This document shows, one piece after another, positions 9,419 to 34,178 of a DNA stretch of 64,000 nt. Every line of letters begins with the position of its first letter. Positions within the stretch are counted from its first letter, which is position 1. This DNA is from Candidatus Thorarchaeota archaeon (GTDB lineage Archaea; Asgardarchaeota; Thorarchaeia; Thorarchaeales; Thorarchaeaceae), in assembly GCA_050124975.1 (NCBI GenBank), contig JASFEF010000002.1, positions 22,690-86,689 of the forward strand, given 5' to 3'. The notes under the pieces were generated by a model. The model was not told the origin of the DNA. It made no database searches and saw nothing but the letters and a program-made list of their open reading frames with translations. Position numbers and translations under genes: made by a program.

Positions 9419-9447
9419 AGTGTGCTAGCAACGTAAACCAGCTTGGT

Positions 9448-11532
9448 CTAGCTTTGGGAATGTCTGATTTTACCCTCGCGTGGACTGTACAGTATCCCCT
9501 CAGCCAATAGTTTCTCAATAACTTCTTCAGCGCGTTCACGAGGTAGACCCATTGAAACAGCTCTCTGAATCAGGGCATCTCGGTTTACTGTTGAAGTTCC
9601 TTCAGATTCCATGTCGCGGATAGCTTTGATGATGATATCTGAGGAACTCCGCTGCGATGCACTCATCTTAGAAACAAGACTATCAATGTCGATTTTCCCA
9701 GTTATCCTGTCAAGTGCAACCATACGAAGAGATTCTTCCATGAGTCGGACCGCTGCTTGGGCGTCTTCTTTAGAAACTTTGGATTGTAACGCCATTCGGG
9801 CTCTTGCTTCTGCCAAACGAACAAGTGATTCTAGTTGACGTGCTGTGATTGGAACTGGGGAGGCCCCTCCTTCGGCGCTCTTTCGAAGGTCTACATAGAA
9901 TTTCTCAATCACTTCTGCAGCCTCTGATGATAGTTGTGGAATGACATAGCGATTTGCGTATCCAATGTACTTCTTCAAGAAATCAGGAGCAATTGTTGGT
10001 GTTGCACCTGTACTCTGTATCTTCTTCATTTGGTGCATGTTGAGTATGAATTGTGCAAGTTCACGGTCTCTTGTAGCCTCTGGAACATCAACTAGAATCC
10101 AAATTAGATCAAACCTTGAAAGGATGGTGAACGGTAATCGGATATTATCTTGAACAGAGAGTGATGATTCATAACGACCTAATGATGGATTGGCGGCTGC
10201 AAGGATTGAGGTTCTTGCATTCAGTGTAGCGACAATTCCAGCTTTTGCGATACTGACTGTGTGTTGTTCCATGGCTTCATGTATTGCAGTCCGATCATTG
10301 GGGTCCATCTTATCAAACTCATCTATACATGCTATACCTTGGTCCGACAGAACTAATGCACCGGCTTCCAATGTCATTGCACCGGATTCTGTATCGTGAA
10401 CAACCGCTGCAGTAAGTCCTGCTGCTGTAGTCCCCTTACCAGAAGTATAAAGTCCCCTTGCGGCCAAGCCCGAAACGAATTTGAGAATCTGACTTTTTCC
10501 TGTTCCGGGGTCTCCAATCATTAGTATATTGGATTTCCCTCTAAGACGTGTTCCATCTGGCAGTGTCTTTCCAACACCACCGAATAGAAGGAGTGCAATT
10601 GATTCTTTAATTCGTTCATGACCCTGTATAGATGGAGCAATGGAAGCATGGATTCTTTCGTGAACATATGGGTCCTCAGCCAACTCCTTTATTCGTTTCT
10701 CGTCTTCTTCAGATATCTCAAGCTGTTCATACTCTTTTTCAGCTATCTCAACACCATTTGCTTCAATGAAAATATTGAATGTCGCAAGCTTTCCTCCTCT
10801 TCTGGAGAAATCGGGAGAAGTCTGAAGGGTTCCAGTAACCTTGACTAATTCACCTGGTCTAGATATATCTACAATATCTCCTTCCAAAATGACATCAACA
10901 GAACGAGGCATCTGGCCAGGAGGAAGTTCCTCGGGTGATTCTTGGATTCTTACCTTTTGCCAGTCTTTGAACTGTGATTTCTGAGGAATCAAACGCATGG
11001 GTGTTTTCTTTGTGCACACTGGACACAGGGCGGGTTCGGTATATCTTCCTTCTTCCTGGGGTTGAGGTATTTCTGCTTGACAGATTCTGCAAAGGAACAT
11101 TGCTTGAACCAGAAGTGGTTTGACCACACTGGCTCTCATCATGATTCCACTGATGTGTATCAGCTTTCCAATATGACGAGACCGAAGAGCGCGCAATGCT
11201 ATGTGTTCAGGATAATTTACAAAACGTGTCTTTATGAAACTGATATCAAGACTATTGACATAGTCTGGGTCTTCAACACGAAGTACTGATACCAGAGCAT
11301 TATCAGACATCTCTAGGAACTTCTGAGGGTCTTCAGCTGCTAATGCCATGAACACGTTATCGAAGCTTGTCAAATCCTGAAAATCAACGGTGAGTGAAAT
11401 TTCATCATTAATTGACATTTGTTGGATTCTTGACCAATAAGTCAGAGTTCCCTGTTCATCTTTGTATGTTCTTAGGAACTCCTCGAATCTTTCCTGTTCA
11501 TCATAACTGGACATCTTTCTTAGCCTCGACAA
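9448..11532 (-). CDS. mcm: minichromosome maintenance helicase MCM
   Basis: 694-aa ORF with a zinc finger (CPVCTKK), Walker A GDPGTGKS, Walker B/arginine finger (IDEFDKM...SRFDL) and a C-terminal winged helix. Confidence 0.9.
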   Translation of the reverse strand: MSRLRKMSSYDEQERFEEFLRTYKDEQGTLTYWSRIQQMSINDEISLTVDFQDLTSFDNVFMALAAEDPQKFLEMSDNALVSVLRVEDPDYVNSLDISFIKTRFVNYPEHIALRALRSRHIGKLIHISGIMMRASVVKPLLVQAMFLCRICQAEIPQPQEEGRYTEPALCPVCTKKTPMRLIPQKSQFKDWQKVRIQESPEELPPGQMPRSVDVILEGDIVDISRPGELVKVTGTLQTSPDFSRRGGKLATFNIFIEANGVEIAEKEYEQLEISEEDEKRIKELAEDPYVHERIHASIAPSIQGHERIKESIALLLFGGVGKTLPDGTRLRGKSNILMIGDPGTGKSQILKFVSGLAARGLYTSGKGTTAAGLTAAVVHDTESGAMTLEAGALVLSDQGIACIDEFDKMDPNDRTAIHEAMEQHTVSIAKAGIVATLNARTSILAAANPSLGRYESSLSVQDNIRLPFTILSRFDLIWILVDVPEATRDRELAQFILNMHQMKKIQSTGATPTIAPDFLKKYIGYANRYVIPQLSSEAAEVIEKFYVDLRKSAEGGASPVPITARQLESLVRLAEARARMALQSKVSKEDAQAAVRLMEESLRMVALDRITGKIDIDSLVSKMSASQRSSSDIIIKAIRDMESEGTSTVNRDALIQRAVSMGLPRERAEEVIEKLLAEGILYSPREGKIRHSQS

Positions 11533-11621
11533 TATTCATTATACTAGAATGTTCATTCGTTTGTCAGTATCCGACTCCTTGTTCTTCTTGATTTGTATTT
11601 AAGGGCACTAATACTCATTGC

Positions 11622-15360: not shown

Positions 15361-15645
15361 TCATGACTCCCAAAGATTGAACAGGCTTCTTAGTGAACGT
15401 GCTCTGAGATCTTCAATCTTGTAACGATAGATTTTGATTCTTCCAAATTTCTTCTCTTCTATAAGGCCTGAGCTCAGTAACACTTCAAGATGGGATTTTG
15501 TTGAACTATGATTGAGGTCTACTCTTCGACAAAGCTCAGAGATATTTAGCTCATTAGAAGCTGCTAGTTCCTTGAGTATCTTGATTCTGCCTCGTGATGA
15601 AAATATGTCCTCAATAGGAACTTTGGGTGAACTTTCAGCGGTCAT
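15361..15645 (-). CDS. small winged-HTH (ArsR-like) transcriptional regulator
   Basis: 94-aa ORF containing ILKELAASNELNISELCRRVDLNHSSTKSHLEVL. Confidence 0.45.
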   Translation of the reverse strand: MTAESSPKVPIEDIFSSRGRIKILKELAASNELNISELCRRVDLNHSSTKSHLEVLLSSGLIEEKKFGRIKIYRYKIEDLRARSLRSLFNLWES

Positions 15646-16856
15646 CTGTTAGCCTCCTTGGATGTATCGAGTAATCCTGACAGGAATTGCTCCAACATCT
15701 CAGCTGGAACATCCGAGAACCCAATAAGAGTAGTCTGACCTCTCTGACCTGAACCTGATTTCTTTGCATCTATTATACCGTGAGAATGAAGATCTTGGAC
15801 CCACTCCCAAATCTGAGTGTGGGCTCGTGGTTCTTCATAGTATTCCTCACATATTGAGCGATACATTTCTTCAACTTCGCCTATTGTGACATATGCACTA
15901 CGAATCTCCCGAAGCTGTCTTGCTGCTGCTAATAGTAGAAGTTTGTGCTGTGTAGGAAGTGTTACAAAAATCTCCTTTCTAAGCTCAGGATGGGTGTCTG
16001 TTTTTGCACGACGTGCATAATCAGGTATAACTACATCTACTTGGTCACTATCAGCGCCTTTGCCAGCACGCCATAAGAGCTCAATTGCATATCGTGCATC
16101 ACCGTGCTCGGAAGCAATATCACAAATGACTTGGATTGTTTCATCCATGACTGTCTTCTTCTCAAAAGCCATTTCTACACGGTCTTGGAGTATGTCATGA
16201 AGTGCGTCACGTCTATACCTCGAGAATCTGAGAACATTGCGTTGTAGGGTGCTTCGTGTACTAGAGTCTAGAATGTCATCATCAAGAGGGATTTTTCGAC
16301 CAATTCCTATAATTGAGAGACGTTGTGTTGCGTTAAGTCTATCATCCATAAGTCGTGTGAGATCATAAAGAATGTCAGCACCTCTCTGCCTTATGAAATA
16401 GTCCAGCTCATCAAGGATAAGGAGAAGATATCGATCTTCTTCATCGAGAATCTCCACTAGCATTTGTAGTAATTCGTCAGGTGAGTGTCCACGTCTAGGA
16501 AACTTAGGTTTGAATTCTCGTAGTGCTCGAAGAAAAACTAGGTATGCGGTCTTGTTGACACGGCAGTTAATGTGAATACTATGAAGTCTGATATTTCGCC
16601 TTTTTGCAGCTTGAATCATCTGTTCAGAAAACCGTTTTGCTACTGCCGTCTTCCCGGTTCCTACAGGCCCCTCAATGATGAACTTGTGACTTGTTCGACC
16701 TGGTGAACTGATTAGGGTCTTAAAACTTTGAACAAGTGTCCTAATCTCAGATTGTCGATGAGGAAGACTTTCAGGCACATAGTCGATAGATAAGAACTGC
16801 TCTGATTTGAATACACTACGTCTGCTGAGTTCATCTTCAACATAGTCGTGAGGCAT
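15642..16856 (-). CDS. orc1: Orc1/Cdc6 replication initiator
   Basis: 404-aa ORF with AAA+ motifs (GPVGTGKT; DELD) and a C-terminal winged helix. Confidence 0.85.
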   Translation of the reverse strand: MPHDYVEDELSRRSVFKSEQFLSIDYVPESLPHRQSEIRTLVQSFKTLISSPGRTSHKFIIEGPVGTGKTAVAKRFSEQMIQAAKRRNIRLHSIHINCRVNKTAYLVFLRALREFKPKFPRRGHSPDELLQMLVEILDEEDRYLLLILDELDYFIRQRGADILYDLTRLMDDRLNATQRLSIIGIGRKIPLDDDILDSSTRSTLQRNVLRFSRYRRDALHDILQDRVEMAFEKKTVMDETIQVICDIASEHGDARYAIELLWRAGKGADSDQVDVVIPDYARRAKTDTHPELRKEIFVTLPTQHKLLLLAAARQLREIRSAYVTIGEVEEMYRSICEEYYEEPRAHTQIWEWVQDLHSHGIIDAKKSGSGQRGQTTLIGFSDVPAEMLEQFLSGLLDTSKEANR

Positions 16857-17067: not shown

Positions 17068-17145
17068 TGGTGCGACCGCCGGGATTTGAACCCGGCTTGG
17101 AAGCTTGGGAGGCTTCCGTCCTAACCAGGCTAGACCACGGTCGCA
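17068..17145 (-). tRNA. tRNA-Gly (anticodon CCC), CCA encoded
   Basis: The hand-folded cloverleaf is GCGACCG-TG-GTCT/AGCCTGGTTA/GGAC-G-GAAGC/CTCCCAA/GCTTC-CAAG-CCGGG/TTCAAAT/CCCGG-CGGTCGC-A-CCA. Confidence 0.85.
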
Positions 17146-17996: not shown

Positions 17997-19127
17997 ATGT
18001 CCGGTAATAATGAAAGAATCGAGTTCTGGCAAGGCAATCAAGCTTGTGCAGAAGCTGCTATTACGGCAGGTTGTAGATTCTTTGCAGGTTATCCAATCAC
18101 ACCAGCCTCAGAGATTGCGGAAATTATGTCAGTAAAACTTCCAGTGATTGGAGGTACATACGTTCAGATGGAAGATGAGATTGCTGCTATCTCTGCTGTA
18201 ATTGGCAGTTCTTGGGGAGGATCTTTGTCGATGACAGCAACCTCGGGTCCAGGATTCAGTCTGATGCAGGAAAACATAGGATATGCCATTATGACAGAAA
18301 CTCCTTGTGTTATTGTAGATGTTCAGAGAGCTGGTCCAAGTACAGGACAAGCTACGAAAGCGGCTCAGGGAGATTTTATGCAAGCACGTTGGGGGACTCA
18401 TGGAGACTATGAGAGTATTGTACTTGCCCCCAACTCCGCACAAGAAACATATGAACTGACGTTGAAATCATTTGAGCTATCTGAGAGACTACGCCATCCT
18501 GTCATTCTGCTCTCAGATGAAATTGTGGCGCATTCACGGGAAAAGGTTGTTGTTGATAGAAGCAAGGATAACTCGGTGAAAAGGCGATTCGCAAAGAGAG
18601 GAGATATGTCCTTTGGTGAGATTGATGCTGATGGACATGCGATGATGCCGAGATTTGGCGATGGTCATGATTTGCTCATTACAGGATCGACCCACAATGA
18701 GTCAGGACTACGAAAAACTGCAGACCCAGAGGTGCATGATAGACTGGTCCGTAGATTATCAGCTAAAATTCAGAACAAGCATGAATTATTGGAAGATTAT
18801 GAAATTTCAGGTCCTGATACAGCTGAATGGGGTGTTGTTTCATATGGTTCAACATCTAGATCAGTGGATGAACTGATGGCAATCACATCGGAACCCACAG
18901 TACGGTCTTTCAGAATGAGAACATTGTGGCCGTTCCCTGATGATGCATTAAAGAAATTTGCTAAATCTGTTGATAGGTTGTTGATCCCAGAACTTAGTCT
19001 TGGTCAGCTGTCAAGGGAAGTGAGTCGAGCGGTAGAAGGGTTGGTGGATGTTATTCCCTTGAACAAGATTGGTGGCGGCCTCATGATTGAACCAGATGAA
19101 ATTCTTCGTGAAATGGTCAAGTCTTGA
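17997..19127 (+). CDS. korA: 2-oxoacid:ferredoxin oxidoreductase alpha subunit (KorA/PorA-like)
   Basis: The N-terminus IEFWQGNQACAEAAITAGCRFFAGYPITPASEI and the pyruvate-flavodoxin oxidoreductase domain are present. No beta subunit follows. Confidence 0.7.
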   Translation: MSGNNERIEFWQGNQACAEAAITAGCRFFAGYPITPASEIAEIMSVKLPVIGGTYVQMEDEIAAISAVIGSSWGGSLSMTATSGPGFSLMQENIGYAIMTETPCVIVDVQRAGPSTGQATKAAQGDFMQARWGTHGDYESIVLAPNSAQETYELTLKSFELSERLRHPVILLSDEIVAHSREKVVVDRSKDNSVKRRFAKRGDMSFGEIDADGHAMMPRFGDGHDLLITGSTHNESGLRKTADPEVHDRLVRRLSAKIQNKHELLEDYEISGPDTAEWGVVSYGSTSRSVDELMAITSEPTVRSFRMRTLWPFPDDALKKFAKSVDRLLIPELSLGQLSREVSRAVEGLVDVIPLNKIGGGLMIEPDEILREMVKS

Positions 19128-20842
19128 GGATTATCAATATTGTAGTCACTCGTCGATATCACAATCGTGATGTTTGTTCGCATCCAAACCCTGACAGATA
19201 TTGAATAATTAACTGTCTTGAGATATTGACTGCTGATGCTGAAGGTAAAATTATGAATACCTGGTGATACCCACATGGGAAGTGATGCAATTTGGGTTGT
19301 GTTTGGGTTGACGTAGCCAGTCATTGCAAAAGGCGTTAGTTCGTCATCACAAAATATGGATATCTCAACCAAAGAGATTGATTGATTATTATCATCTTGA
19401 ACATCTATTTCGAATTCTAGGATTTCGTCATAGAATGAGTTTGTAACTGAAACGTTAGCCTCCATTGTTCCAAAAACAATCAGGTTGATTTGTTGAGTGG
19501 GTGTAAACTGATAGTATTCACTCATAGGTGAGATGTTGACAACGTGATGTCCTACTGAGATGTTATGCCAGATTGGGAATGTCAGGAAACTGGTTACACT
19601 TGGTTGAACATCAGATGCCTGCGAAAACTGCATCATTTCATCTGTAAATTGCAATTGTATTGATTGATTCCAGTCAAGAGTTGGTTCGATGAGGAATTCT
19701 ATTGTGACATTGTCACCTCTTGTCACATTCCAAGAGGATTGGGGTGCTGAAAATTGTAATGAGTTGGCAACTACATCTACGACAGTTGTTACTTCAGCAT
19801 TTTGGTATTGAGGATTGATTGCTGTGAGATTGATATGATAAAACCCTGGACTAACATTGAAAGGAATCATGTCTGAATATCTACCATTTCCCAAATCTGT
19901 CAATAATCCAAAACCAAAGCTTGTAGTCCATTGGACTATGCTATCATTTACGGGTTCTGAGTCTATATCCATGTGTTCAACTATAATTTCAGCCTGCTCG
20001 ACGTGACTTCCATCAGGTGACTGACAATATACTGGTCCGGGTGACGATATTATTGTTAGATTGGATGGAGCTGGAAGAACTGTAATTTGAAATGAATCTG
20101 CAAATGGAAGAAAATCCTCGTTTCCATAACCCGAAACAGACAGGTTGTAGGAGCCAGGAAATCCAAAAGAGTCACTCCAGTTGAGATAGACCATGCCTTC
20201 TGAAGTTGGGGTTGTATTCGAATGAAACACTGTTTGTGATTCTGAGTCTTCAACATGAAGATTGACTAGCTCTCCAGAGTAGACTACATTATTATTGTGA
20301 GTACTTGCAATCTTTAGTGGAATAGATGTATTCAATCCATATTGTACTGATAGAGAAGACAAAGGAATGGTGTCGAGATGTCCTCTGTTGATTGTTATTT
20401 CGATATTATCGCCAGCGCTTTGATACACTGTATCGAAGATTTCTACTGTGAAAAGCGCAAAGGCTTGAGCTCCTGATTCATTAGGGGCAGTATGTTCAGG
20501 TAAGATTGTATATGATGAATTCAGGTAGCGAACTGCAGGAAACGGGGGAATGTAGTATTCGTCCGCATAAGACGGTCCAAGATCAGTCACAAGAGCAAAT
20601 GAAACATAACACCATCCCTCGTCGCTGAAATCTGCAATAAGTTTAGCAACCATGTTAATGGTTTCTCCAACTTCATAAACTAGTTTGTCTGTTTCAAAGT
20701 ATTGAAAATCGAAGTAGAAGGCTGAAACTGGGATTACGAAGCATGCAATAAGGAGAAGAGCGATGGGTACAAGTGCTGTTTCTTTTTGTTTCACCAGACT
20801 ACACCAGAAAATCGTCGTTATCTTTCCTAAAAAACAGCACAT
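19004..20842 (-). CDS. secreted/cell-surface protein, hypothetical (sequon-rich)
   Basis: There is an N-terminal signal/TM segment, and N-x-S/T sequons are numerous through a beta-rich body. It overlaps korA convergently by 124 nt. Confidence 0.45.
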   Translation of the reverse strand: MCCFLGKITTIFWCSLVKQKETALVPIALLLIACFVIPVSAFYFDFQYFETDKLVYEVGETINMVAKLIADFSDEGWCYVSFALVTDLGPSYADEYYIPPFPAVRYLNSSYTILPEHTAPNESGAQAFALFTVEIFDTVYQSAGDNIEITINRGHLDTIPLSSLSVQYGLNTSIPLKIASTHNNNVVYSGELVNLHVEDSESQTVFHSNTTPTSEGMVYLNWSDSFGFPGSYNLSVSGYGNEDFLPFADSFQITVLPAPSNLTIISSPGPVYCQSPDGSHVEQAEIIVEHMDIDSEPVNDSIVQWTTSFGFGLLTDLGNGRYSDMIPFNVSPGFYHINLTAINPQYQNAEVTTVVDVVANSLQFSAPQSSWNVTRGDNVTIEFLIEPTLDWNQSIQLQFTDEMMQFSQASDVQPSVTSFLTFPIWHNISVGHHVVNISPMSEYYQFTPTQQINLIVFGTMEANVSVTNSFYDEILEFEIDVQDDNNQSISLVEISIFCDDELTPFAMTGYVNPNTTQIASLPMWVSPGIHNFTFSISSQYLKTVNYSISVRVWMRTNITIVISTSDYNIDNPQDLTISRRISSGSIMRPPPILFKGITSTNPSTARLTSLDS

Positions 20843-20916: not shown

Positions 20917-21282
20917 ATGGTAATTAGGCTAAAGACAGCTGTTATAGATTCTGTTGAAGAAACTGAAACTAGAAGATTGAAGATATTGAAGGTGTCTTCG
21001 AAAAGTGATGGTGCTACTCTCACATTGGAGCTGCCTGATGCAATATGTGACACGTTGAACACCAATGATTCCATCACTGTAGTTATTGATTCTAAACCGA
21101 TTACGAAAGGTGAAAAGGCGAAGCTATACGTTGAAAGCGGTGTCTTCAAGAAGATAGAGAAAAATGGTTTGGAGGTAATTGGATCAGTAGGCGGATTAAG
21201 ATTGGTCTTCACTCTTGGGAAAGCTACTCCAAGTCAGAGTAATATTTTCAACTCTGAGCGATTCTTCCTAGCAATCATGTAA
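20917..21282 (+). CDS. putative RNA polymerase subunit Rpo8 (RpoG, Rpb8-like OB fold)
   Basis: 121-aa ORF. Local resemblance to Rpb8 (LTLEL...DSITVVIDS; GGLRLVF) and the position upstream of tfb support the call. It is tentative. Confidence 0.4.
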   Translation: MVIRLKTAVIDSVEETETRRLKILKVSSKSDGATLTLELPDAICDTLNTNDSITVVIDSKPITKGEKAKLYVESGVFKKIEKNGLEVIGSVGGLRLVFTLGKATPSQSNIFNSERFFLAIM

Positions 21283-21456: not shown

Positions 21457-22500
21457 GTGTGGTTTTTGACTGATGGAACATGTGAATCTCGTTTAACGAA
21501 TTCGAAATCTTGTCCTGACTGTAGCGGTTTTCTTGTCACTAGTCAAGGACATATAGTATGTGCTGAATGTGGTTTGGTACTCTCAAGAGAGTATGTCTTG
21601 CCCACATACCAGATGGGAGAGAGACCAAGTGGTGATTCTCCTGATGCAAGTATGTATGTGTCTTTGGGTAATCGGATGCATATTGTAGATGGCCTTGGTA
21701 GCTACATCGGTTTTCACAAGGATCGATACTTCCAAGATGCTCAGGGACATGCATTGTCTGGAAGAAAGCAAAAGAAGTTCAAACGCTTGAAGACGATATA
21801 CAGTACTAGAATCAGAATTGGTAAGAATGAGGCGAAGTACAGAGCTCTGCGAACCCTCAATCATGTATCAAAGCTTCTCATGATCAATGAGCAAGTTCGT
21901 GATCGGACTGCCTATCTGTACAAGAAAGTGGTGAATGAAACAGCTGGAAATGTGAGTAATAACATTCTGCTGATAGCAGTCTGCCTTCTTATGGCTGTAA
22001 GGGAATTCAAAGAAGAAGCTCCAATAACACTTGATGAGATAGCCGATGTGTTTGAGAAATGTGGACACCGGGTCAATGTGAGAGCGATTGTGCGGGAAGC
22101 GCTTAGGCTCAAATCACTCACAGGTTACTCACCTGAGATACGGAAACCAGAGGATTATGTCCCAAGAGTGCTGTCTATGTTGATGAACAGCCCAAGAGTA
22201 GTCAGCAAGGTTCAATCAAGAGGTTGGGAGATAAAGGACTATGAAAATGCTCTCAGAAAAAAGATACTAGAAGTTCTCAAGATGATACCTGCTTCAAAGA
22301 GAGGTGGAAGGAACCCTTTCATATTCACAGTTTCAGCTGCTTATGCAAGTGATAGACTGATTGCTGTGCAGCATGGAAAACGAGCTGTTCTAACTCAGAA
22401 GCTTGCATCGACTGCAACAAAAGTGGCTGAATACAGTATCAGAGATCACTTCGGGATGATGAAGAAAGTCATTGAGATATCTCATGCAAGCATCCAGTGA
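21457..22500 (+). CDS. tfb: transcription initiation factor TFB (TFIIB homologue)
   Basis: An N-terminal zinc ribbon (CPDCSG...CAECG) is followed by two cyclin-fold repeats. Confidence 0.85.
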   Translation: MWFLTDGTCESRLTNSKSCPDCSGFLVTSQGHIVCAECGLVLSREYVLPTYQMGERPSGDSPDASMYVSLGNRMHIVDGLGSYIGFHKDRYFQDAQGHALSGRKQKKFKRLKTIYSTRIRIGKNEAKYRALRTLNHVSKLLMINEQVRDRTAYLYKKVVNETAGNVSNNILLIAVCLLMAVREFKEEAPITLDEIADVFEKCGHRVNVRAIVREALRLKSLTGYSPEIRKPEDYVPRVLSMLMNSPRVVSKVQSRGWEIKDYENALRKKILEVLKMIPASKRGGRNPFIFTVSAAYASDRLIAVQHGKRAVLTQKLASTATKVAEYSIRDHFGMMKKVIEISHASIQ

Positions 22501-22556: not shown

Positions 22557-24263
22557 GTGGTTTATTGGGTGAACTCAGATATCTATGTGATTCAATGTCC
22601 TAGTGGACGTTGTGAGAAATGTCCCCAGAAGATTAATCGCGGTTGCCAGAAGCTAGATGGCATTAGAGAATCCGGAAACGTGGAAATAAAATTGGTGTTG
22701 GTTGAACCCGAAAGGGGTTTACTCCACTTCTGCGATTCAATCAGTAACATACAAACTGAGCCTTCTTGGAAGACTGATGGGTGGGAAACTTTCTTCGTAG
22801 GTCCAAATAGCCATCTATTCGAAGGGGTAGATAATCTCGTGGCTATTTACAAGGTTGGACCTTATCTATCCATGTTCAGGCGGAATGAAAATAATCAGAC
22901 AGAATATATTACAGCTCCATTGGTTAGAACCGCTCTAGAACACTCACTTATTGAAGAGTTGAGTCACAAGTCGGTGTATTTTGGAGATAAAACATCTTCA
23001 TTAAGAAATGGTATTACTCAGAAACTGAAGCAGGTTACAGATGATGTTTCGAAACACATCATGAGTCTAATACCTGAAATTAATGAAACTACGAGAAAGA
23101 ATCTCTCAGAGATTGTTGCTCATCGTCGTAGCGTTCTTGGTCCCTTAATGCCCATTGTACTTGATGATTTCGTAGAGGAGATATATCTTGATAGTCCAGG
23201 AGTGCCCGTATATTTTGACCATCAGAAGTATGGTAGATGTATCACTACTATCACTTTTCGAAAACATGATGTGCCAAGGATTATCACGTTGATTCGTGCT
23301 GAGAGTAACTTTCACCTTGATAGAAGTAATCCATCTCTCAAAATGAATTTACAGATTCAAGATGCATCGTTGCGTTTCTCTGTGAGTATACCACCGCTCA
23401 GTCCGGATGGTTTACACCTTGAGATACGTAGGGCGAGAAACCATCCATTCTCAATTAATGATTTGATAGAAAACGGTACAATGACACCTGAAGTTGCAGC
23501 AATTCTACTTTTTGCTGTTTCATGTCGGTTCAATATTACAGTGACTGGGGGTCCAGGAACCGGGAAGACTACCTTGTTGAATGCATTAGATTTGACTACT
23601 CCAACATGGTGGAGAAAAATCTACATCGAGGATGCCATTGAGAGTAGAAAGCAGAGTAATCATCATCAAGTTCGATTCATGGTAGATCCCATGGATGAGC
23701 AATTGGTGAAATTAAGCAAAAGTGATGAGATAATCAAATGTCTTCACAGGTCACCAGACTATCTTGTACTTGGAGAAATTCAGACTGCTGAGCATAGTAA
23801 AGCTCTATTTCAGGCGATTACTGCCGGTCTCAGAACTATCCAGACCTGTCATAGTGAGTCAGCTTCAAGTCTCATTTCTAGATGGAAGCTAGGACACGGA
23901 ATCCAAGATGATAATCTTGCACTGATGGATGTCATAGTCACCCTCGAAAGACCAAGACCAGGTGAGTCAAAACGAAGAGTAAAGGAAATTTCTGAAATCC
24001 GGAGAAAAAACGTTAATGGCTTGATAGAATTTGCAGGCCTCAACAATGTGTATGATAGTAGTAGAGAGGATATCGATAGCTGGGCAGATGATGGGGCATT
24101 CATAACGCGAGCAAGAGATATTGGAGTTGAGAGTCATGTTCCGGCTCTAAGTACCTTGATTGATACTGTTCGTCATAGTGTGTACCATTCTAGTCTTGAT
24201 ATGTTGAGTGAGAAGATGTGGTCATATGGACATCCTATGAGGTACGTAGAGCGCACAACATGA
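22557..24263 (+). CDS. type II/IV secretion-system ATPase of the FlaI/VirB11/TadA class
   Basis: An N-terminal CxxC...CxxC cluster is followed by Walker A TGGPGTGKTTLLNAL, a Walker B/Asp box PDYLVLGEI and a His box TCHSESA. The PGVPVYF segment is typical of this ATPase class. Confidence 0.7.
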   Translation: MVYWVNSDIYVIQCPSGRCEKCPQKINRGCQKLDGIRESGNVEIKLVLVEPERGLLHFCDSISNIQTEPSWKTDGWETFFVGPNSHLFEGVDNLVAIYKVGPYLSMFRRNENNQTEYITAPLVRTALEHSLIEELSHKSVYFGDKTSSLRNGITQKLKQVTDDVSKHIMSLIPEINETTRKNLSEIVAHRRSVLGPLMPIVLDDFVEEIYLDSPGVPVYFDHQKYGRCITTITFRKHDVPRIITLIRAESNFHLDRSNPSLKMNLQIQDASLRFSVSIPPLSPDGLHLEIRRARNHPFSINDLIENGTMTPEVAAILLFAVSCRFNITVTGGPGTGKTTLLNALDLTTPTWWRKIYIEDAIESRKQSNHHQVRFMVDPMDEQLVKLSKSDEIIKCLHRSPDYLVLGEIQTAEHSKALFQAITAGLRTIQTCHSESASSLISRWKLGHGIQDDNLALMDVIVTLERPRPGESKRRVKEISEIRRKNVNGLIEFAGLNNVYDSSREDIDSWADDGAFITRARDIGVESHVPALSTLIDTVRHSVYHSSLDMLSEKMWSYGHPMRYVERTT

Positions 24264-24324: not shown

Positions 24325-24534
24325 TTGACGAAGGATGATAGTTTGATTCATGATGAGCAGGGAGGTCCGTTGGTTGAGGAAAGTCTGCTCCTTGGTTTAG
24401 CAGTTGTTACTGTTTCAATTGTGATAGCGGTCATCCTTCAGGCTACCGGATGGGCACAAGATGTTGTTGAGGGATTACTTCAACTTCTTCAGGATAGTTG
24501 GAGCAGTCTGACACAGTTATTCGGCACACCATAA
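24325..24534 (+). CDS. putative Flp-like / class III signal-peptide pilin
   Basis: 69-aa ORF. The polar leader ends ...EQG, then GPLVEE with Glu at +5, then a hydrophobic helix LLLGLAVVTVSIVIAVI. This matches the Flp pilin G/xxxxE(Y) pattern. Confidence 0.4.
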   Translation: MTKDDSLIHDEQGGPLVEESLLLGLAVVTVSIVIAVILQATGWAQDVVEGLLQLLQDSWSSLTQLFGTP

Positions 24535-24619: not shown

Positions 24620-24729
24620 GCTCCGGTAGAGTGTTGTATATTTCTATACAATAACACCGATTGTAGTCCGGCCCAGCATGGGGGACTCTCGATCCTCCGA
24701 CCCGGGTTCAAATCCCGGCCGGAGCACCA
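24620..24729 (+). tRNA. tRNA-Glu (anticodon CTC) with a ~32-nt intron in the D-arm region (non-canonical position), CCA encoded
   Basis: The 3' part folds as ...CAT-G-GGGGA/CTCTCGA/TCCTC-CGAC-CCGGG/TTCAAAT/CCCGG-CCGGAGC-A-CCA. The matching acceptor strand GCTCCGG lies 110 nt upstream. The intervening sequence is about 24630-24661 and contains the hairpin TTGTATA/TATACAA. Confidence 0.65.
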
Positions 24730-24739
24730 TCTTTCATTA

Positions 24740-26740
24740 TTAGCCTACGAGATATCTTCGTCGAATGATTGGAACTGTTGAAATCCCAACAGAAGCGATA
24801 AGAGCTATTGTTAGACCCATAATGCCAACTCCTTGTAGTGACATTACATCAGCTATTGTTACTTCGATTATGAACGAGCCACTAGTTGAGATGATTGAGC
24901 TTGTTGTTTCCGACTCATAGTATAAGACATAATTACCACTAGTAGCAGGGATTCTAAGATGAAGAAAGATTATGCCTCCTTCAGTGGTTTCAGCATTGAA
25001 ATTCGAGTTCAACCAATCAAAGTTAACTTGGACATTCTTTAGGGTCGATCCATTATAGCCTCTTAGTGTGAGATGTACCGACAATTCGTGGAGAGGGGCT
25101 ACAACTTCATAGAAACCAAGTTCTAGTCGCACAGGCATTTGACTAGTTACTTGGAGGTCATAATCAAACTTGACTGATGATTCAAAGAGTGTGTCGTTCC
25201 CATCATAAAATATGGAGATATTGTATTGTTTCTCGATGAATGGAACAGAGAAAGAGAAAATTACTCGACCATTTGTATCAGTGACATCCGATAGTTGGAT
25301 TTCATCATCTATCAGGAACTGGAGTGGTCTAAAGGAACAGTTTCCAGCCCAGTCGGTCATCTGGAGTTCGATAGAAACCTCTTGGCCAGGGGATGCATAG
25401 TGTTCAACATTGCATTTTACTAGTGATATCGTAGGGGTAGACCAAGCTGAGAAAGTAATACTTGAACTAGTATTCGTTATGAACGAGTTTTCTGTGATTT
25501 CTATATTGAGTGTGTGAATCCCAGCAGGACCTTGTAATTCGTATTGAAAGTTGGTGGTAGTTTCAATTGGACTTGAAGGAATTGTGAATCTCTGGTTGGA
25601 TGTGGAGTCAATAATTGAGATTAAGGAGTTGGGAATAGCACGACCTAGTAGATCAGAAACAGTGATTTCAATATCGACGCTGGAACCAATCCCGACTGAT
25701 TCAGGCACCTCAATAAGTATCTGAGCAGGACTTGTTACAGAAAAAGATGATTCGAGATAGGATTCAGAATATCGTTCAGTCCCGTTGTAGCGTATTATTA
25801 GTGAATGAGTCCCAAGTGTGAATCTTTCATCAATGATGATATGGAAATGGCCAATTCCAGAACTGTTGGAAGTGGTGATAAGTAGGGGGATATCATCTAG
25901 GAGTAGTTGAAGAGATTCGTTTGGTATTATGTTGCTTGTTTCATAGAGTTCAGCATACAGATCTACAGATTCATCGAGTCCGATTTCGTTGGGAAGAGGG
26001 TTTTGAAGAATGAGAGAAGTTTGTATTTTTGATATTTCGACTGTGAAATTAAATTCTGATGCGTCGAGAGAATTGATCAAGTCTTGATTGTACACAACAC
26101 GAATGTGATTATCTCCCAATGTAATCCATGAACTGTTACACATGATATCAAAATGGATACCTCCAGACGAGTTCGTTGTGCCTATTGCAAGTGGTGTATC
26201 ATCCTTGAAGATTGTCAAAGTTGCATCTGATATTGGATTATGTGAATCATCAGTCAGATGAAGTGAAAAGGATAGGTAGTCACCTGGAGCCAGTATATCA
26301 GGAGTTTGGTCAATCTCAATGTTGGTGGATGATAGTATTACCAGCGTTGTCCATTGGTATGAGGGTGCTAGAGAGAGAGACTCATTGCCATAGAATGTTG
26401 CATTGATTATTGTAGGTCCAAGGACATGATCTGAGGGAATATTCCAAGAAATGGAGGCAATGCCATTTGCATCCGTCTTGTCAGAGCCAATGAGAGAGTC
26501 GAATGTCTGGTCATAGAAGTATATTCTCTGGTTTGATACAGGGTTTCCATAGCTACCATTCTGAAGAAGAGTGATTGTGATTGTTACTGCATCCCCTCTA
26601 ACAACCACTGCTTCACCTTCTGCTGAAACCGGTTCAGTGTTGAACACGATCAATGAAAGTAGAACTATGAATATTACCGGGAACCAGTACGATTTCCTGA
26701 TGATATGTACCCCCTTGGGGAAGTTACAGGTATTTCTCAC
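24740..26740 (-). CDS. cell-surface protein, hypothetical; N-terminal signal peptide, sequon-rich beta-rich domains, C-terminal TM anchor followed by RRR
   Basis: 666-aa ORF. The N-terminus is MRNTCNFPKGVHIIRKSYWFPVIFIVLLSLIVF...SAEGE and the C-terminus is ...GIMGLTIALIASVGISTVPIIRRRYLVG. N-x-S/T sequons are frequent. Confidence 0.5.
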   Translation of the reverse strand: MRNTCNFPKGVHIIRKSYWFPVIFIVLLSLIVFNTEPVSAEGEAVVVRGDAVTITITLLQNGSYGNPVSNQRIYFYDQTFDSLIGSDKTDANGIASISWNIPSDHVLGPTIINATFYGNESLSLAPSYQWTTLVILSSTNIEIDQTPDILAPGDYLSFSLHLTDDSHNPISDATLTIFKDDTPLAIGTTNSSGGIHFDIMCNSSWITLGDNHIRVVYNQDLINSLDASEFNFTVEISKIQTSLILQNPLPNEIGLDESVDLYAELYETSNIIPNESLQLLLDDIPLLITTSNSSGIGHFHIIIDERFTLGTHSLIIRYNGTERYSESYLESSFSVTSPAQILIEVPESVGIGSSVDIEITVSDLLGRAIPNSLISIIDSTSNQRFTIPSSPIETTTNFQYELQGPAGIHTLNIEITENSFITNTSSSITFSAWSTPTISLVKCNVEHYASPGQEVSIELQMTDWAGNCSFRPLQFLIDDEIQLSDVTDTNGRVIFSFSVPFIEKQYNISIFYDGNDTLFESSVKFDYDLQVTSQMPVRLELGFYEVVAPLHELSVHLTLRGYNGSTLKNVQVNFDWLNSNFNAETTEGGIIFLHLRIPATSGNYVLYYESETTSSIISTSGSFIIEVTIADVMSLQGVGIMGLTIALIASVGISTVPIIRRRYLVG

Positions 26741-26914: not shown

Positions 26915-29900
26915 ATGCCATTTCATTTGCCCCGAAAAGGAGGATTAGGATTGGTTTCTTATGATTCACATAGAAAACCAAGGTCATGGCTGAGTATAAT
27001 CTGGACGATTGGAAATCTATTTGCCGGATTGTATTTGTTAGCGGTTTACTTGTTGCCATTGACTGGATTGGTTAGTCAACCATTGATTCCTCTAAAGACG
27101 GTTGTTGAAGTGACCATCTGTTTGATTCCAGTAATAACAGGATTTGTGTTGACTGTAAGAAAAGTTCGTCTTCAGAATCCTTTGGTTTCGGTAGAAGGTA
27201 GCACATTATTGATTCAACTTGGTGACCATGTGATTGGGACCTGCTGTCTCGATATTCTGTCCGTATCCGGTTCGGTGTATCTAGACGAAAATGGAAAACC
27301 AAGGTATAATGAGAGTATGTTATTGGCAATGAGGGCAGGAATGGACAAATCGGTAACAATGGCTTTTGAAGCGGGTGTATCTAATGGTGAACCGTTCTTG
27401 TATATCTTCATAACTGCAGTTGGACATAGCTTGAAGCAAATTCAGGAGATTCTGAGAAGAGAAGCAACCAGAACTGAAGCAATTCTTTTGTCTTCTCTGA
27501 ACAATGTGGAACTGAAACTTCTGGAGGGTGATTTACTGCAAGATGTTGTTTTGACGCATATGGAAGGGGTATACATAGAATCTCAAGGGATAATCCTCAA
27601 TGAGAGAGTAAAATCGATGGGAATCATAACCTTACAAGGATTACCCCGGACATTCCCAACACAGGATGCTTCTCAGGTAGGGACATTCATTTCAACTGTA
27701 CTCAGACAAGGGTATACAACAAGCATGACCTGTGTGTTTTCTTCAGCTAAACCAGGGAAAGAGAAACGTACACTTGAAAGTCAATGGAAAAATATCCAAG
27801 CAAAGGAAAAGCGGAAGGAAGAATCGCTTCAAGACTATGCAGAAAAGAAAAAACTAGTGACTCGTTATGAAGAAATTCAAGATAGGGCTGGTTGGTTTGA
27901 TACTACAGTATACTTCAAAGTGAATACATCAGCTACAAGTCATATTGAAGCTGATCTAAATGGAGTAGTTGGGCTAGTCCATGCCATTTGGGGTGGTGGT
28001 GATTCAATCAAGCTAAGTAAGCAGAAGTTGTCAAAACGGACAGCGTATAGGATGCTATCTCGTCGTCATTTGAAACGACAACGTATGCATATAGCTCGAC
28101 TGTCATCTTTTGTAAACACGCCGATTCAACAGCTTCCAGCTATCACTCCAAGACATGCACCGACATTTCCAGTTCCTGCTAAGGATTTGTTGGACAATGA
28201 ACTTGTTATTGGTGAAACAGTCTTCGGAGGGCGACGTTTATCAAATGCTGGATTGGAGGTTGATTGGTTAAGGGAGCATGTTACGATTTTGGGGGCAACT
28301 GGAACAGGGAAGACAACTCTTGTGAAGCATCTTATAGCTCAGTTAAGTACGGAAACGGATGTACCTTGGTGGATATTTGACGTCAAGGGGTCTGAGTATC
28401 TTAATCTGGTTGGTCATGGCGAATCAGAAATCCTAGTTCTAAGACCAGGTCTTGACTCTTCTTTTGTAATCAACCTTATCGACTCTGAGATGGCAAATGA
28501 TGAGAACCATGCTCATTCTACATTTGTGATATTGAGAGAGCTGTTGAATGAAAGAGGCGATTCTTCTGAACTTTCTCCAGCAATGGAAAAACTCCTGCGT
28601 GATTCAATAATGAAAATGGCAGTAACACTGGATCAGGGTAACTCAGTTCAGTTTCTAGTCAAGATGATTTCAGAGGTTGCTGGTAATGATCGTATAGGAA
28701 GCATGACCAGAGATGCGTTGCTCAATCGCCTTGAGATAGTGACTCGCGAACCACTAGCATCAATCCTTGGAGATGATACAGAAACTGTTCGATTTTCGGA
28801 ACTACTAAACAAGCGTGTTATCTTCGATCTTTCGTATGTTGCACGAGTAGGGGGAATGGATTCTGCAAGACTCCTCTACAATCTTGTTGCTAAACGAATT
28901 TTCGAAAGTGCAATGAGAAGAGGTGTCACTGAAGGTTTACATCATGTTGTTGTGTTAGAAGAAGCAAGTAATCTCGTGCCTGAAAGCTATACAAGACATT
29001 CAGCAGCAGATGTGACGACTGGAGAATCTATGGTGATGCTACAACGGGCTACCGGACAAGGCGTTGTTGTGATATCAACTAGACCCAATATCTCTTCGAA
29101 CATTTTAGCGAATACTTCAACTAAGATTGTATTTCGATTGCCTTATGATAGTCAAGTTGGTGGAAGATTCCTTTCTTTGAACGAGGATCAAGAACAGTAT
29201 CTTCGCACGATGCAACGAGGAAGAGCCTTGATGAGTATACCTCATACTGAAACCTTTGAAATTGTCACACAACGGTTTTCTGAAACTTTGGTGCAGGAGA
29301 AACCAGCAGATTCTATTGAACACAGTTCCATTCCAACAGTTGAAACTCCTGAAACAGATGATGCGAAAGATTTGGTGAGCGACAAAGAAGTATCTGAACC
29401 AGACCAAGACTCCAAGGCTCAGACCCTTGTTTTCAACAGAATTGACAGACTTGGAAGTCATGTTGTTGCATTTTTAGCATCGGAAGGATGGGCGACAGAA
29501 GGTGAAATCCGAAATCTTCTTTCAGTGTTGGATTCTACCGTAGTGGATGATGATATTTCGGAGGTTATTCGAAATCTTGTATCATTGGGTAGTGTTGAGA
29601 GAGAAGCCTTGGCGCTTGTTGATGGTGGATTTGTATTTGCCCTCCCTGGAAAGGCTTTGAACGCAGTCAGGCGTGTAATTGTTGAGTATATATCTGGAAA
29701 ACTTGGAATAGAGTATAATCCTTCGACCTCTTCTGATAATCCTGATTGGCCAGATATTGTCCTTGAGGACAGGGCTGTAATTGTAATTCCTCAGCATCTG
29801 AGAGCGTCATCTATGGTTTTGACATTAGATGGGATTCGTAATCAAATGAGTAAGCTTCAGAATGGTGTAAGCGAACTCATTGTTGTTGTCAGAGGCAGTG

Positions 29901-30706
29901 TTGCTGCTGCAAAGCTGAGAGAATTGATGGATTCATCGGAGGAGTTCAATGATGTTAGTGTTGTTTCAGCATTTCCTAAATCTCTGGATTCGATTATTGA
30001 AGGTTTGACTCACGAACCCGTTTTGTCTGAAGAAGCCTCCATTCAAACACAACTGGAAGAGAACACTGATTCGGACAAGCAGGAGGACTTGATTGGTGCG
30101 ATGCACGATGTAGGTTCTGCAACCAATCGAGCAATTCAGATTCGGCTGTGGTTTGGTCTGATTCAGGATTTGGTTGACATATCCAACGGCCAAGTCAAAT
30201 GGGAGGAGCTATTGGAATTCATTGAAACCACTGCTCTACAGTCTTTGAAAGGAAGATCAGCTCCATTAAACATAGAAGAAGGAAAACGTGCTCTGACAGA
30301 GTTGCTGGCTGATGAGGTTTTAATTGCATTACGTGTCAATGATAAATCCCAGTTTGTCGAGCTTGCAGAAGGCCTCTGGTTGGTGAACTCGTCAGTTCTC
30401 AAGAGTCTGAAAGAAAAGGCGATAACCAAAATAGAGCAAGAGCTGAAGAAACACCATTCAAAGGTGTCTAAGAATCATGGTTACTACGATCTTTGTGTTG
30501 GGAATATTTCGTATGTCATATTTCCAAATCAGCAACAACTGAATACGCTTCTTCATTTACATAGTGATATTGCTTGCAGGACCTGTAAATCAACAAAGGT
30601 TGTTTGTGTTTTAACCGCATCAGAGTATCTTGAAGAAAGTGAAACGACACCGAGTAATCTAATCGTTAAGACAATGGATGACAATATGTCAGCCCTTGTA
30701 ACATGA
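26915..30706 (+). CDS. membrane-anchored HerA/FtsK/VirB4-superfamily ATPase (DUF87-like), 1263 aa
   Basis: Two or three N-terminal TM helices are followed, in the central region, by Walker A ILGATGTGKTT, the HerA/VirB4-type motif WWIFDVKGSEY and Walker B VVVLEEASNL, then VVVISTRPN. The C-terminal stretch of about 500 aa is acidic and has no recognised domains. Confidence 0.6.
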   Translation: MPFHLPRKGGLGLVSYDSHRKPRSWLSIIWTIGNLFAGLYLLAVYLLPLTGLVSQPLIPLKTVVEVTICLIPVITGFVLTVRKVRLQNPLVSVEGSTLLIQLGDHVIGTCCLDILSVSGSVYLDENGKPRYNESMLLAMRAGMDKSVTMAFEAGVSNGEPFLYIFITAVGHSLKQIQEILRREATRTEAILLSSLNNVELKLLEGDLLQDVVLTHMEGVYIESQGIILNERVKSMGIITLQGLPRTFPTQDASQVGTFISTVLRQGYTTSMTCVFSSAKPGKEKRTLESQWKNIQAKEKRKEESLQDYAEKKKLVTRYEEIQDRAGWFDTTVYFKVNTSATSHIEADLNGVVGLVHAIWGGGDSIKLSKQKLSKRTAYRMLSRRHLKRQRMHIARLSSFVNTPIQQLPAITPRHAPTFPVPAKDLLDNELVIGETVFGGRRLSNAGLEVDWLREHVTILGATGTGKTTLVKHLIAQLSTETDVPWWIFDVKGSEYLNLVGHGESEILVLRPGLDSSFVINLIDSEMANDENHAHSTFVILRELLNERGDSSELSPAMEKLLRDSIMKMAVTLDQGNSVQFLVKMISEVAGNDRIGSMTRDALLNRLEIVTREPLASILGDDTETVRFSELLNKRVIFDLSYVARVGGMDSARLLYNLVAKRIFESAMRRGVTEGLHHVVVLEEASNLVPESYTRHSAADVTTGESMVMLQRATGQGVVVISTRPNISSNILANTSTKIVFRLPYDSQVGGRFLSLNEDQEQYLRTMQRGRALMSIPHTETFEIVTQRFSETLVQEKPADSIEHSSIPTVETPETDDAKDLVSDKEVSEPDQDSKAQTLVFNRIDRLGSHVVAFLASEGWATEGEIRNLLSVLDSTVVDDDISEVIRNLVSLGSVEREALALVDGGFVFALPGKALNAVRRVIVEYISGKLGIEYNPSTSSDNPDWPDIVLEDRAVIVIPQHLRASSMVLTLDGIRNQMSKLQNGVSELIVVVRGSVAAAKLRELMDSSEEFNDVSVVSAFPKSLDSIIEGLTHEPVLSEEASIQTQLEENTDSDKQEDLIGAMHDVGSATNRAIQIRLWFGLIQDLVDISNGQVKWEELLEFIETTALQSLKGRSAPLNIEEGKRALTELLADEVLIALRVNDKSQFVELAEGLWLVNSSVLKSLKEKAITKIEQELKKHHSKVSKNHGYYDLCVGNISYVIFPNQQQLNTLLHLHSDIACRTCKSTKVVCVLTASEYLEESETTPSNLIVKTMDDNMSALVT

Positions 30707-33923: not shown

Positions 33924-34178
33924 GTGAAACCAATGTGGCTGTCGATTCTTAGTCCACTAACAGACTTTGCAAATTTGATAGCAGGATATTTCATGGAGAT
34001 TTGGGATTTCCTAATCTTCATAGGGAATATCTCAGCTTTCGTAGTTGTCTTGGTGGGTGCAATTCTGTGGTTTACGGGTGTAAATGATAAGAGAGGAAAG
34101 GGACTGGTTCTGAGTGGTATTCTTCTTGCAATTATTATTCAGTACTTTGTGTTCTATCCACCTTCATTTACGTTATAG
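33924..34178 (+). CDS. small membrane protein, hypothetical (2 predicted TM helices)
   Basis: 84-aa ORF with a hydrophobic composition. Confidence 0.3.
   Translation: MKPMWLSILSPLTDFANLIAGYFMEIWDFLIFIGNISAFVVVLVGAILWFTGVNDKRGKGLVLSGILLAIIIQYFVFYPPSFTL

Follow-up and report, generated by a model that had tools for sequence, protein, structure and literature searches.

The gene at positions 26915..30706 (forward strand) of a 64,000-nucleotide stretch of a Candidatus Thorarchaeota genome (contig JASFEF010000002.1; the whole stretch is referred to here as the window) encodes a membrane-anchored ATPase of 1263 amino acids (aa), which very probably is a VirB4/CedD-like motor belonging to a gene cluster for a surface apparatus. 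To the broader reading, that an envelope-spanning apparatus peculiar to Asgard archaea has this protein as its cytoplasmic motor ATPase, we give a probability of about 0.5. By sequence the ATPase core is assigned to the HerA/DUF87 clade, and the N-terminal region is predicted to fold like that of VirB4; the same combination was described in 2025 for CedB and CedD of the Sulfolobales (PMC11868833). In at least three Asgard lineages, the gene is linked to those of a TadA/FlaI-type ATPase, a Flp-like mini-pilin, a TFIIB paralogue and immunoglobulin (Ig)-like surface proteins. An earlier note, made from the letters of the window, had recognized a HerA/VirB4-superfamily ATPase with an N-terminal membrane anchor, and both attributions stand; the new points are the VirB4/CedD-like assignment, a first and tentative account of the C-terminus, the occurrence of the family across Asgard archaea and the conserved gene cluster.

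The protein comprises the following parts, given with their coordinates in the window, strand and basis:

26915..30706, +: whole gene, 1263-aa membrane-anchored ATPase, probably VirB4/CedD-like (open reading frame list; full-length homologues)
26990..27166, +: membrane hairpin, aa 26-84, two hydrophobic helices (Kyte-Doolittle; AlphaFold2)
27173..28234, +: N-terminal domain, aa 87-440, mixed alpha/beta, with a charged helical segment at about aa 283-325 (AlphaFold2; Foldseek)
28235..29284, +: P-loop ATPase domain, aa 441-790, DUF87/HerA clade of the FtsK-HerA superfamily (Pfam; NCBIfam; weak PADLOC matches)
28292..28315, +: Walker A, GATGTGKT, aa 460-467, with K466 (motif position; alignments)
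28946..28966, +: Walker B, VVVLEEA, with E682 and E683 (motif position; alignments)
29075..29089, +: STRPN motif with R723 (HMMER alignment to HerA-like PDB chains)
29285..29419, +: variable acidic linker, aa 791-835 (alignment A1; composition; model confidence)
29420..30010, +: C-terminal unit 1, aa 836-1032, winged-helix-like domain, long helix and small alpha/beta domain (AlphaFold2; weak Foldseek matches)
30086..30703, +: C-terminal unit 2, aa 1058-1263, second winged-helix-like region, long helix and beta-rich domain (invariant columns of A1; low-confidence model)

The gene is genuine, single and conserved. An in-frame TAG directly precedes its ATG. Among 5.8 billion proteins searched, full-length homologues (1253-1292 aa, 56-100% identity) make up more than 120 clusters, together with some fragments at contig ends; the sources of these clusters are all Thorarchaeota or related Asgard metagenome-assembled genomes (MAGs). 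Overall, the full-length homologues measure about 1230-1290 aa. Nine more full-length clusters, with 42-62% identity, came from an exhaustive HMMER run over 1.8 billion cluster representatives, while a scan of one genome per species with the alignment A6, which yielded almost only Thorarchaeota, located the gene in 79 Thorarchaeota loci. In the recovered Thorarchaeota genomes it is universal, apparently single-copy and syntenic, and is set among housekeeping genes. The open reading frame is uninterrupted in all relatives, and an alignment of 20 sequences (A1) is conserved from end to end, interrupted only by short acidic linkers at about aa 791-835 and again at about aa 1033-1057. This whole-length conservation and the full-length homologues rule out a fusion artefact of two genes, which the earlier note had raised, as well as a chance open reading frame. 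As had been estimated, the protein is about twice as long as HerA, which has 500 aa in 4d2i, and as the CedB model with its 590 positions.

Five Thorarchaeota MAGs (L073, L076, L079, L087 and L088) carry a second copy of the gene on a short contig, with 51-57% identity, which again adjoins a gene for an Ig-like protein where the flank is present. These copies are either strain or bin contamination or a true paralogue.

The sequence class of the ATPase domain was determined with family models. Pfam places the DUF87/HerA central domain (PF01935) at aa 443-642, with an E value of 6.5e-12 and 46.4 bits against a cut-off of 23.2; the other Pfam matches are to generic P-loop families and weak, and no match to CagE_TrbE_VirB is reported by Pfam. 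Among the named NCBIfam models the best is CedD (NF053655; E 2.8e-13, aa 430-780), which ranks ahead of anti-phage HerA, VirB4_CagE and CedB, all far below their cut-offs (CedD, 49.4 bits against 600; VirB4_CagE, TIGR00929, 24 bits against 643; CedB, NF041017, 17.1 bits against 700). The segments VVVLEEASNL and VVVISTRPN, which had been noticed to follow the Walker A, lie at aa 678-687 and 717-725. G460, G463, G465 and K466 are invariant even in wide Asgard alignments, the Walker B is invariant within the family (A1), and E682, R723 and P724 are invariant in alignment A6, with STRPN aligned to the SQRP of HerA. By comparison with FtsK and HerA ATPases in general, we take R723 to be the probable arginine finger. 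Judged by the conservation of these motifs, the ATPase appears to be catalytically intact.

The same core is shared with the HerA proteins of the HerA-NurA, SIR2-HerA and DUF4297-HerA systems, which raises two other explanations. The first is the housekeeping HerA of HerA-NurA DNA end resection, suggested by the name of the Pfam domain ('Helicase HerA, central domain') and by a profile match to Sulfolobus HerA 4d2i (E 1.5e-4). When compared with the PDB, the family profile found HerA-like chains only, with E values of about 1e-4 and mainly around the P-loop, where the match to HerA is limited to about 50 residues, and by fold HerA aligns over about 350 columns against about 800 for VirB4 (see below). 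Moreover, the Asgard protein has no match to the HerA N-terminal part, it is membrane-anchored, and no nurA, mre11 or rad50 gene lies within 10 kb on either side. The housekeeping role, a firm grouping with which the earlier note had named as an outcome that would refute its reading, is effectively refuted.

The second is a defence ATPase of the HerA kind (SIR2-HerA, DUF4297-HerA or mad8 of Mads), which would sense or degrade invading DNA. PADLOC reports mad8 with E 6.6e-14 and several HerA defence models with E values from 1e-6 to 1e-13; the sole relatives on plasmids are DUF87 'ATP-binding proteins', and two distant relatives stand beside Hachiman genes (locus L009) or beside OLD-family and methyltransferase genes (locus L006). 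However, the matches cover the generic ATPase core only, none of the adjoining genes encodes an effector partner (SIR2, DUF4297, NurA or a nuclease), and the gene's universal, apparently single-copy and syntenic occurrence in Thorarchaeota is unlike that of defence islands. There are also no viral or mobile-element signals, as PHROGs gives P-loop matches only and no relative was found among viral contigs. We consider a role in defence very improbable.

The N-terminal part separates the protein further from HerA. A Kyte-Doolittle scan reveals two hydrophobic segments, at about aa 26-53 and 57-84, and no others in the ATPase, which leaves two of the two to three transmembrane helices estimated in the earlier note and no third. 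Both segments are present in 20 of the 20 aligned family members, with basic residues on both flanks, and are modelled by AlphaFold2 as helices spanning residues 20-49 and 61-86 (predicted local distance difference test (pLDDT) of 68-85 by block). Since basic residues flank both sides, the hairpin is likely to have both of its ends in the cytoplasm. In natural VirB3-VirB4 fusions VirB3 sits at the N-terminus, where the hairpin lies here, and by analogy the hairpin would take the position of VirB3.

No Pfam or NCBIfam family matches the N-terminal domain that follows. The AlphaFold2 model of aa 1-792, built from 14 sequences, has a mean pLDDT of 64, with blocks mostly at 60-87 in the N-terminal domain and poorer values in the ATPase domain (aa 830-1263 were modelled separately). 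The earlier note had asked for such a structure comparison, and in the Foldseek search of this model against the PDB ranks 1-13 are all taken by full-length TrwK/VirB4 of R388, aligned over about 800 columns with E values from 4e-15 to 6e-9. A chain of 457 residues from the same TrwK/VirB4 entry (8rtd_h), which we take to be the ATPase part, has an E value of 3e-7 over 466 columns, while Sulfolobus HerA (E 1.4e-6, about 350 columns) and TrwB (E 7e-6, about 370 columns) cover the ATPase domain only. Because these three align over fewer columns and with weaker E values, the N-terminal domain adds real similarity to VirB4, and aa 1-792 are predicted to have the two-domain architecture of VirB4, that is, a VirB4-type N-terminal domain followed by the ATPase. 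A resemblance to VirB4 of this kind is also reported for CedB, CedD and TedB.

This predicted fold and the genomic setting relate the protein to two groups of characterized motors. CedD, an ATPase of DNA import, combines a membrane segment and an N-terminal domain with a HerA/VirB4-like ATPase (PMC11868833), and the Ced and Ted systems are chromosomally domesticated derivatives of type IV secretion used for DNA exchange (PMC9905601). Like CedB, CedD and TedB, the Asgard protein is archaeal and chromosomally encoded and runs from a membrane segment through an N-terminal domain to a HerA-clade ATPase, and the genomes with Ced or Ted also have type IV pili and a TFB paralogue, which are there used for the same process. 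The differences are, besides the scores of only 49 against 600 bits with the CedD model and 17 against 700 with that of CedB, that the VirB4-like N-terminal domain is split between CedB and CedD, whereas it is complete in one protein here; that the Asgard protein is about twice as long, owing to a C-terminal extension of about 470 aa; and that no gene for CedA/CedE (VirB6-like) or CedA1 (VirB2-like) is near, a type II/IV secretion-family (T2SSE) ATPase and a Flp-like pilin being found instead. The hosts of Ced and Ted are Thermoproteota, whereas the present family is from Asgard archaea. With VirB4/TrwK, the protein shares the predicted two-domain fold over about 800 residues (Foldseek E 4e-15) and an association with genes for a VirB11-family (T2SSE) ATPase and a small pilin-like protein. 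In contrast to VirB4, it shows no membership at the sequence level, it has no VirB6, VirB8, VirB10, VirD4 or relaxase gene nearby, it is encoded in the core chromosome and not on a mobile element, and it carries the additional C-terminal part.

This C-terminal extension, described in the earlier note as acidic, about 500 aa long and made of a linker and helical modules, comprises 473 aa, with a variable acidic linker of 45 aa followed by a conserved region of 428 aa whose net charge is -24. The linker is unconserved and of variable length in A1, contains 14 D/E against 4 K/R, including the acidic stretch ETPETDDAKDLVSDKEVSEPDQD at aa 810-832, and is modelled with pLDDT below 50. In the model of aa 830-1263 (mean pLDDT 56), blocks at about aa 850-1029 reach 59-82, and most of the second half stays below 65. 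We tentatively describe the region as two units, each of a winged helix and an alpha/beta domain; the idea of two repeated units derives solely from the order of the secondary-structure elements, and a comparison of unit 1 with unit 2 by hhalign gave no significant internal repeat (probability 0.5%). An invariant RGSxAAAKLRE segment lies inside the small alpha/beta domain of unit 1, and C1194, H1216, C1221 and C1224, which are invariant in A1, may bind zinc. The fold had been called unknown, in agreement with the present searches of the PDB, in which nothing significant was found by profile and nothing at E ≤ 1e-3 by Foldseek; the weak Foldseek matches, to MarR/MecI winged helices, to the XPF/Hef and EcoO109I nuclease folds and to RsbS, serve only as leads, with no evident catalytic motif of XPF. 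No homology was detected to the C-termini of the Helarchaeota relative P0145 and of the relative P0142, and the conserved C-terminus appears confined to Thorarchaeota, with no detectable counterpart in relatives from other groups.

In FtsK, a membrane anchor is followed by a linker/N-terminal domain, a motor of the FtsK-HerA superfamily and a winged-helix C-terminus. The Asgard protein has its parts in this order, with winged-helix-like regions at the C-terminus, and its gene is a core gene in every recovered Thorarchaeota genome, among housekeeping genes near Cdc6/Orc1 and MCM, as might be expected of an FtsK-like chromosome pump, a membrane-anchored DNA translocase that would clear or segregate chromosomal DNA at division and in which the C-terminal winged helices would act as the FtsK gamma domain. 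Yet FtsK_SpoIIIE (PF01580) reaches 16.7 bits against a cut-off of 24, the predicted fold is nearest to VirB4 and not to FtsK, and the N-terminal domain and the genomic context differ from those of FtsK/SpoIIIE. The C-terminus is acidic, without detectable similarity to the gamma domain, and is absent from the non-Thorarchaeota relatives. Genes for the pilin, the T2SSE ATPase and surface proteins are linked to the ATPase gene again in lineages otherwise without shared synteny (see below). A chromosome pump is an improbable explanation.

The assignment of the VirB4/CedD-like motor to a surface apparatus comes from its neighbours. In the window, these are the following genes:

19004..20842, -: surface protein, 612 aa, secreted or anchored, no known domain, tentative cluster member (N-terminal hydrophobic segment; synteny)
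20917..21282, +: conserved 121-aa protein, possibly Rpo8/RpoG-like, tentative cluster member (Pfam RNA_pol_RpbG, E 0.037; synteny)
21457..22500, +: divergent TFIIB/TFB paralogue, 347 aa, with a zinc ribbon and a cyclin repeat (Pfam TFIIB, Zn_Ribbon_TF)
22557..24263, +: T2SSE ATPase, 568 aa, with a cysteine-rich N-terminal segment (Pfam T2SSE, E 4e-23)
24325..24534, +: Flp-like mini-pilin, 69 aa (sequence; conservation; homologues near ATPase relatives)
24740..26740, -: divergently transcribed partner, 666-aa surface protein with Ig-like (Big_3_5/Big_1) domains (Pfam; membrane segments)

The 666-aa protein has an N-terminal signal or anchor (residue 20) and a C-terminal membrane anchor (residue 638). 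The T2SSE ATPase has its best NCBIfam matches in the TadA family (1.9e-29), followed by FlaI, TrbB and VirB11, and its cysteine-rich N-terminus is kept in the Thor-, Hel- and Promethearchaeota copies; a homologue search with the ATPase of the window returned Thorarchaeota orthologues only. The mini-pilin, which with 66-97% identity across Thorarchaeota is the most conserved member of the cluster, has the motif GG/PLVEE followed by a hydrophobic helix (RG/SPVVEE in the Helarchaeota copy, for which the Pfam Flp1_like match is weak, E 0.047), and we take this motif to resemble the G/xxxxE(Y) signal of Flp/Tad pilins. The TFB paralogue reaches 62.8 bits with the NCBIfam TFIIB model, against a cut-off of 384. 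The Rpo8 identity of the 121-aa protein is tentative, as a four-sequence profile finds nothing in the PDB.

These six genes and that of the VirB4-like ATPase form a seven-gene block (surface protein, 121-aa protein, TFB, T2SSE ATPase, pilin, Ig-like protein and VirB4-like ATPase), which is present in every one of the 79 Thorarchaeota loci with enough flank. In four rearranged genomes the TFB-ATPase-pilin block has been relocated but stays within 10 kb, and the gene of the 612-aa protein moves with it in the rearranged loci. The tightest linkage is that of the Ig-like and VirB4-like genes, which are never split in the 79 loci. Synteny within Thorarchaeota alone says little, because the whole neighbourhood is syntenic across this group.

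Other genes of the window were also noted. A tRNA-Glu(CTC) gene (24654..24729, +) is part of the cluster region, with the pilin gene on one side and the 3' end of the gene for the Ig-like protein on the other. Upstream of the cluster are genes for a Hel308-like helicase (7169..9418), MCM (9448..11532) and Cdc6/Orc1 (15642..16856), with a tRNA-Gly(CCC) gene (17068..17144, -) near Cdc6; a 21-nucleotide direct repeat (17105-17125 and 17202-17222) overlaps this tRNA gene and may mark a second, undetected tRNA or a remnant. The DNA-damage response mediated by Orc1-2 in Sulfolobales includes the ups and ced genes. Cdc6 is syntenic with the cluster in many Thorarchaeota genomes. Orc1-2, an Orc1/Cdc6 paralogue, is reported to mediate the DNA-damage response of Sulfolobales (PMC12490963).

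The window contains no platform protein (TadC/FlaJ/PilC) or prepilin peptidase, no CedA/CedE or CedA1 gene is found within the window around the ATPase gene, and within 10 kb on either side there is no polytopic membrane protein, in the window or in the distant Thorarchaeota loci L001 and L002. Downstream, an 84-aa protein (33924..34178, +) with two predicted membrane helices is 80-84% identical in L001 and L002 and has no family match. Its size and topology recall proteins of the CedA1/VirB2 type, and its sole tie to the cluster is a distance of 3 kb.

More distant relatives of the ATPase (20-33% identity) share the N-terminal domain and the ATPase only, and every named one is from Asgard archaea (Hel-, Njord-, Hod-, Frey- or Promethearchaeota). 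Their loci are unlike the Thorarchaeota locus in all other respects, yet the same partner genes recur. In Helarchaeota (L003), the TFB paralogue has an orthologue (41% identity, E 3e-89) 75 bp upstream of the ATPase gene and on its strand; downstream there are homologues of the 69-aa pilin, at 2.3 kb, and of the T2SSE ATPase (43% identity), at 8 kb. In Promethearchaeota (L011), a co-directional operon encodes the pilin, the T2SSE ATPase, a polytopic protein of 505 aa, a membrane protein of 91 aa and the VirB4-like ATPase; the polytopic protein, found in this locus only, has no match to T2SSF, VirB6 or any other Pfam family. In a further locus (L004), an Ig-like surface protein homologue (31% identity, E 2e-21) divergently adjoins a 937-aa relative of the ATPase, as in the window.

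Some of these distant loci contain additional genes. In Helarchaeota, L003 (17565..24182) and L010 (1468..5629) carry a conserved set of Roadblock/LC7, a 300-aa protein, an Arf/Ras-like GTPase and a surface protein of 524-599 aa, which in L003 adjoins the T2SSE ATPase; the set recalls, in our view, the MglB/MglA pair that controls pilus polarity in Myxococcus. L011 encodes, convergent to the VirB4-like gene, a second DUF87 ATPase of 1154 aa with about seven N-terminal membrane helices (8145..11609, -), and thus some Asgard loci carry two different membrane-embedded ATPases of the HerA clade. The relatives beside Hachiman genes (HamA and a helicase) in the Freyarchaeota locus L009 (5030..8921) and beside OLD-family and methyltransferase genes on the JGI contig L006 (16768..20956) point to defence or mobile islands as a possible location of some members of the wider family.

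By gene make-up, the cluster can be likened to the 'subclade 4D' loci of Thermoproteales, which have been called the most unusual of the archaeal type-IV-pilus-like systems (Makarova, Koonin and Albers 2016, PMC4858521). Both have a secretion ATPase with a cysteine-rich N-terminus, a divergent TFIIB and, tentatively, an Rpo8/RPB8-like gene. The 4D loci, as described, comprise only the ATPase and a membrane protein of four to five helices, without a pilin, secreted protein or VirB4-like gene, whereas the Asgard cluster is larger, with a Flp-like pilin, surface proteins of the Ig-like kind and the VirB4-like ATPase as well. A 'putative secretion system' with MoxR and vWA proteins (Makarova 2015) was also considered, and was rejected as unrelated. 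We found no paper in the literature on this family, or on a VirB4-like, Ced or Ted system in Asgard archaea.

The genes of the cluster also allow for a motor that handles protein and not DNA. As an accessory motor for building pili or the cell surface, the ATPase would feed or extract the Flp-like pilin, as VirB4 does in pilus biogenesis, or would drive the export or anchoring of the two large neighbouring surface proteins. The never-broken linkage with the divergent Ig-like surface protein gene, the high conservation of the pilin, the place of the ATPase gene as the last in the pilin, ATPase and polytopic-protein operon of L011 and the lack of DNA-processing genes nearby are all in favour of such a role, to which an acidic C-terminus, suited to protein-protein contacts, can be added. 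On the other hand, a T2SSE ATPase together with a platform protein normally suffices for a type IV filament system, and no archaeal one is known to use a second ATPase of the HerA/VirB4 type, with none mentioned in Makarova 2016 or in the 2026 preprint on type IV filaments (TFF); and CedB and CedD, the closest characterized archaeal relatives, act in DNA import. We regard this role as rather unlikely, although it is the rival with most in its favour.

Several observations weigh against placing the protein as the VirB4-like motor of an envelope-spanning apparatus. The sequence fails the cut-off of every VirB4, CedB and CedD model, and tblastn against 72,556 plasmids returned no VirB4, TraC or TrbE but only 14 'DUF87/ATP-binding' genes. 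The structural match to VirB4 rests on a medium-confidence model, and its TM-score (template modelling score) is about 0.27, although low values are to be expected since the protein is a hinged two-domain one and the model is imperfect. Within 10 kb on either side, the Thorarchaeota loci have no polytopic channel of the VirB6/CedA kind, no VirD4, no relaxase and no two-helix pilin of the VirB2 type, and by themselves a pilin and a T2SSE ATPase would point to no more than adhesion pili. The distant relatives in L006, L009 and L010 have no adjoining pilus module. Strong acidity such as that of the C-terminus is unusual in a part that binds DNA, and the association of TFIIB with an Rpo8-like gene was read by Makarova et al. 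as possibly 'transcription-related' (PMC4858521).

If the protein is nevertheless the motor of such an apparatus, it would form a ring (hexamer or dodecamer) under the membrane, anchored by at least 12 transmembrane helices, and would use ATP to push or pull a polymer through a channel, together with the pilus module. DNA, put forward by analogy, is the likeliest single cargo, though still less likely than not, and would be exchanged between cells. It is favoured because CedB, CedD and TedB, the nearest characterized archaeal relatives, move DNA, and because Sulfolobales offer a counterpart for each element, with Ups for the pili, Ced for the VirB4-like motor and TFB3, which drives the ups and ced genes, for the TFB paralogue. 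In such a scheme, the pilus module would bring cells together, as Ups does in Sulfolobales, the VirB4-like motor would move DNA, as CedB and CedD do, and expression of the genes would be turned on by the TFIIB paralogue, in the manner of TFB3, to which PMC6101591 assigns a role in the ultraviolet (UV) response of Sulfolobus. The acidic C-terminus found only in Thorarchaeota, with its winged-helix-like units, would recruit a partner protein or the substrate.

The most specific proposal, which we make tentatively, is that of a chromosomally fixed Asgard hybrid machine, in which a Tad/Epd-like pilus module, made up of the TadA-type ATPase with its cysteine-rich N-terminus and the Flp-like mini-pilin, would be combined with a VirB4-like motor with its fused hairpin, with Ig-like proteins, with a TFIIB paralogue of its own and perhaps with an Rpo8-like subunit. 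Such a machine would serve the contact-dependent transfer of DNA or protein between cells, and its motor would have gained, in Thorarchaeota, a double winged-helix C-terminus that selects the cargo.

To our knowledge, Ced and Ted, which are confined to Thermoproteota, are the only known chromosomal DNA-exchange machines of archaea. A 2026 preprint describes archaeal type IV filament systems as widespread 'except the Asgardarchaeota'. A VirB4/CedD-like motor universal in Thorarchaeota and tied to a pilin, a secretion ATPase, surface proteins and a TFIIB paralogue would fill this gap, and would extend the secretion-ATPase-plus-TFIIB loci of Thermoproteales to a second archaeal superphylum. More than 100 database entries named 'DUF87 / ATP-binding protein' would gain a testable annotation. 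As a tangible candidate system for contact between cells or for gene exchange in Asgard archaea, the cluster would also bear on how the archaeal ancestor of eukaryotes interacted with its partners and exchanged genes.

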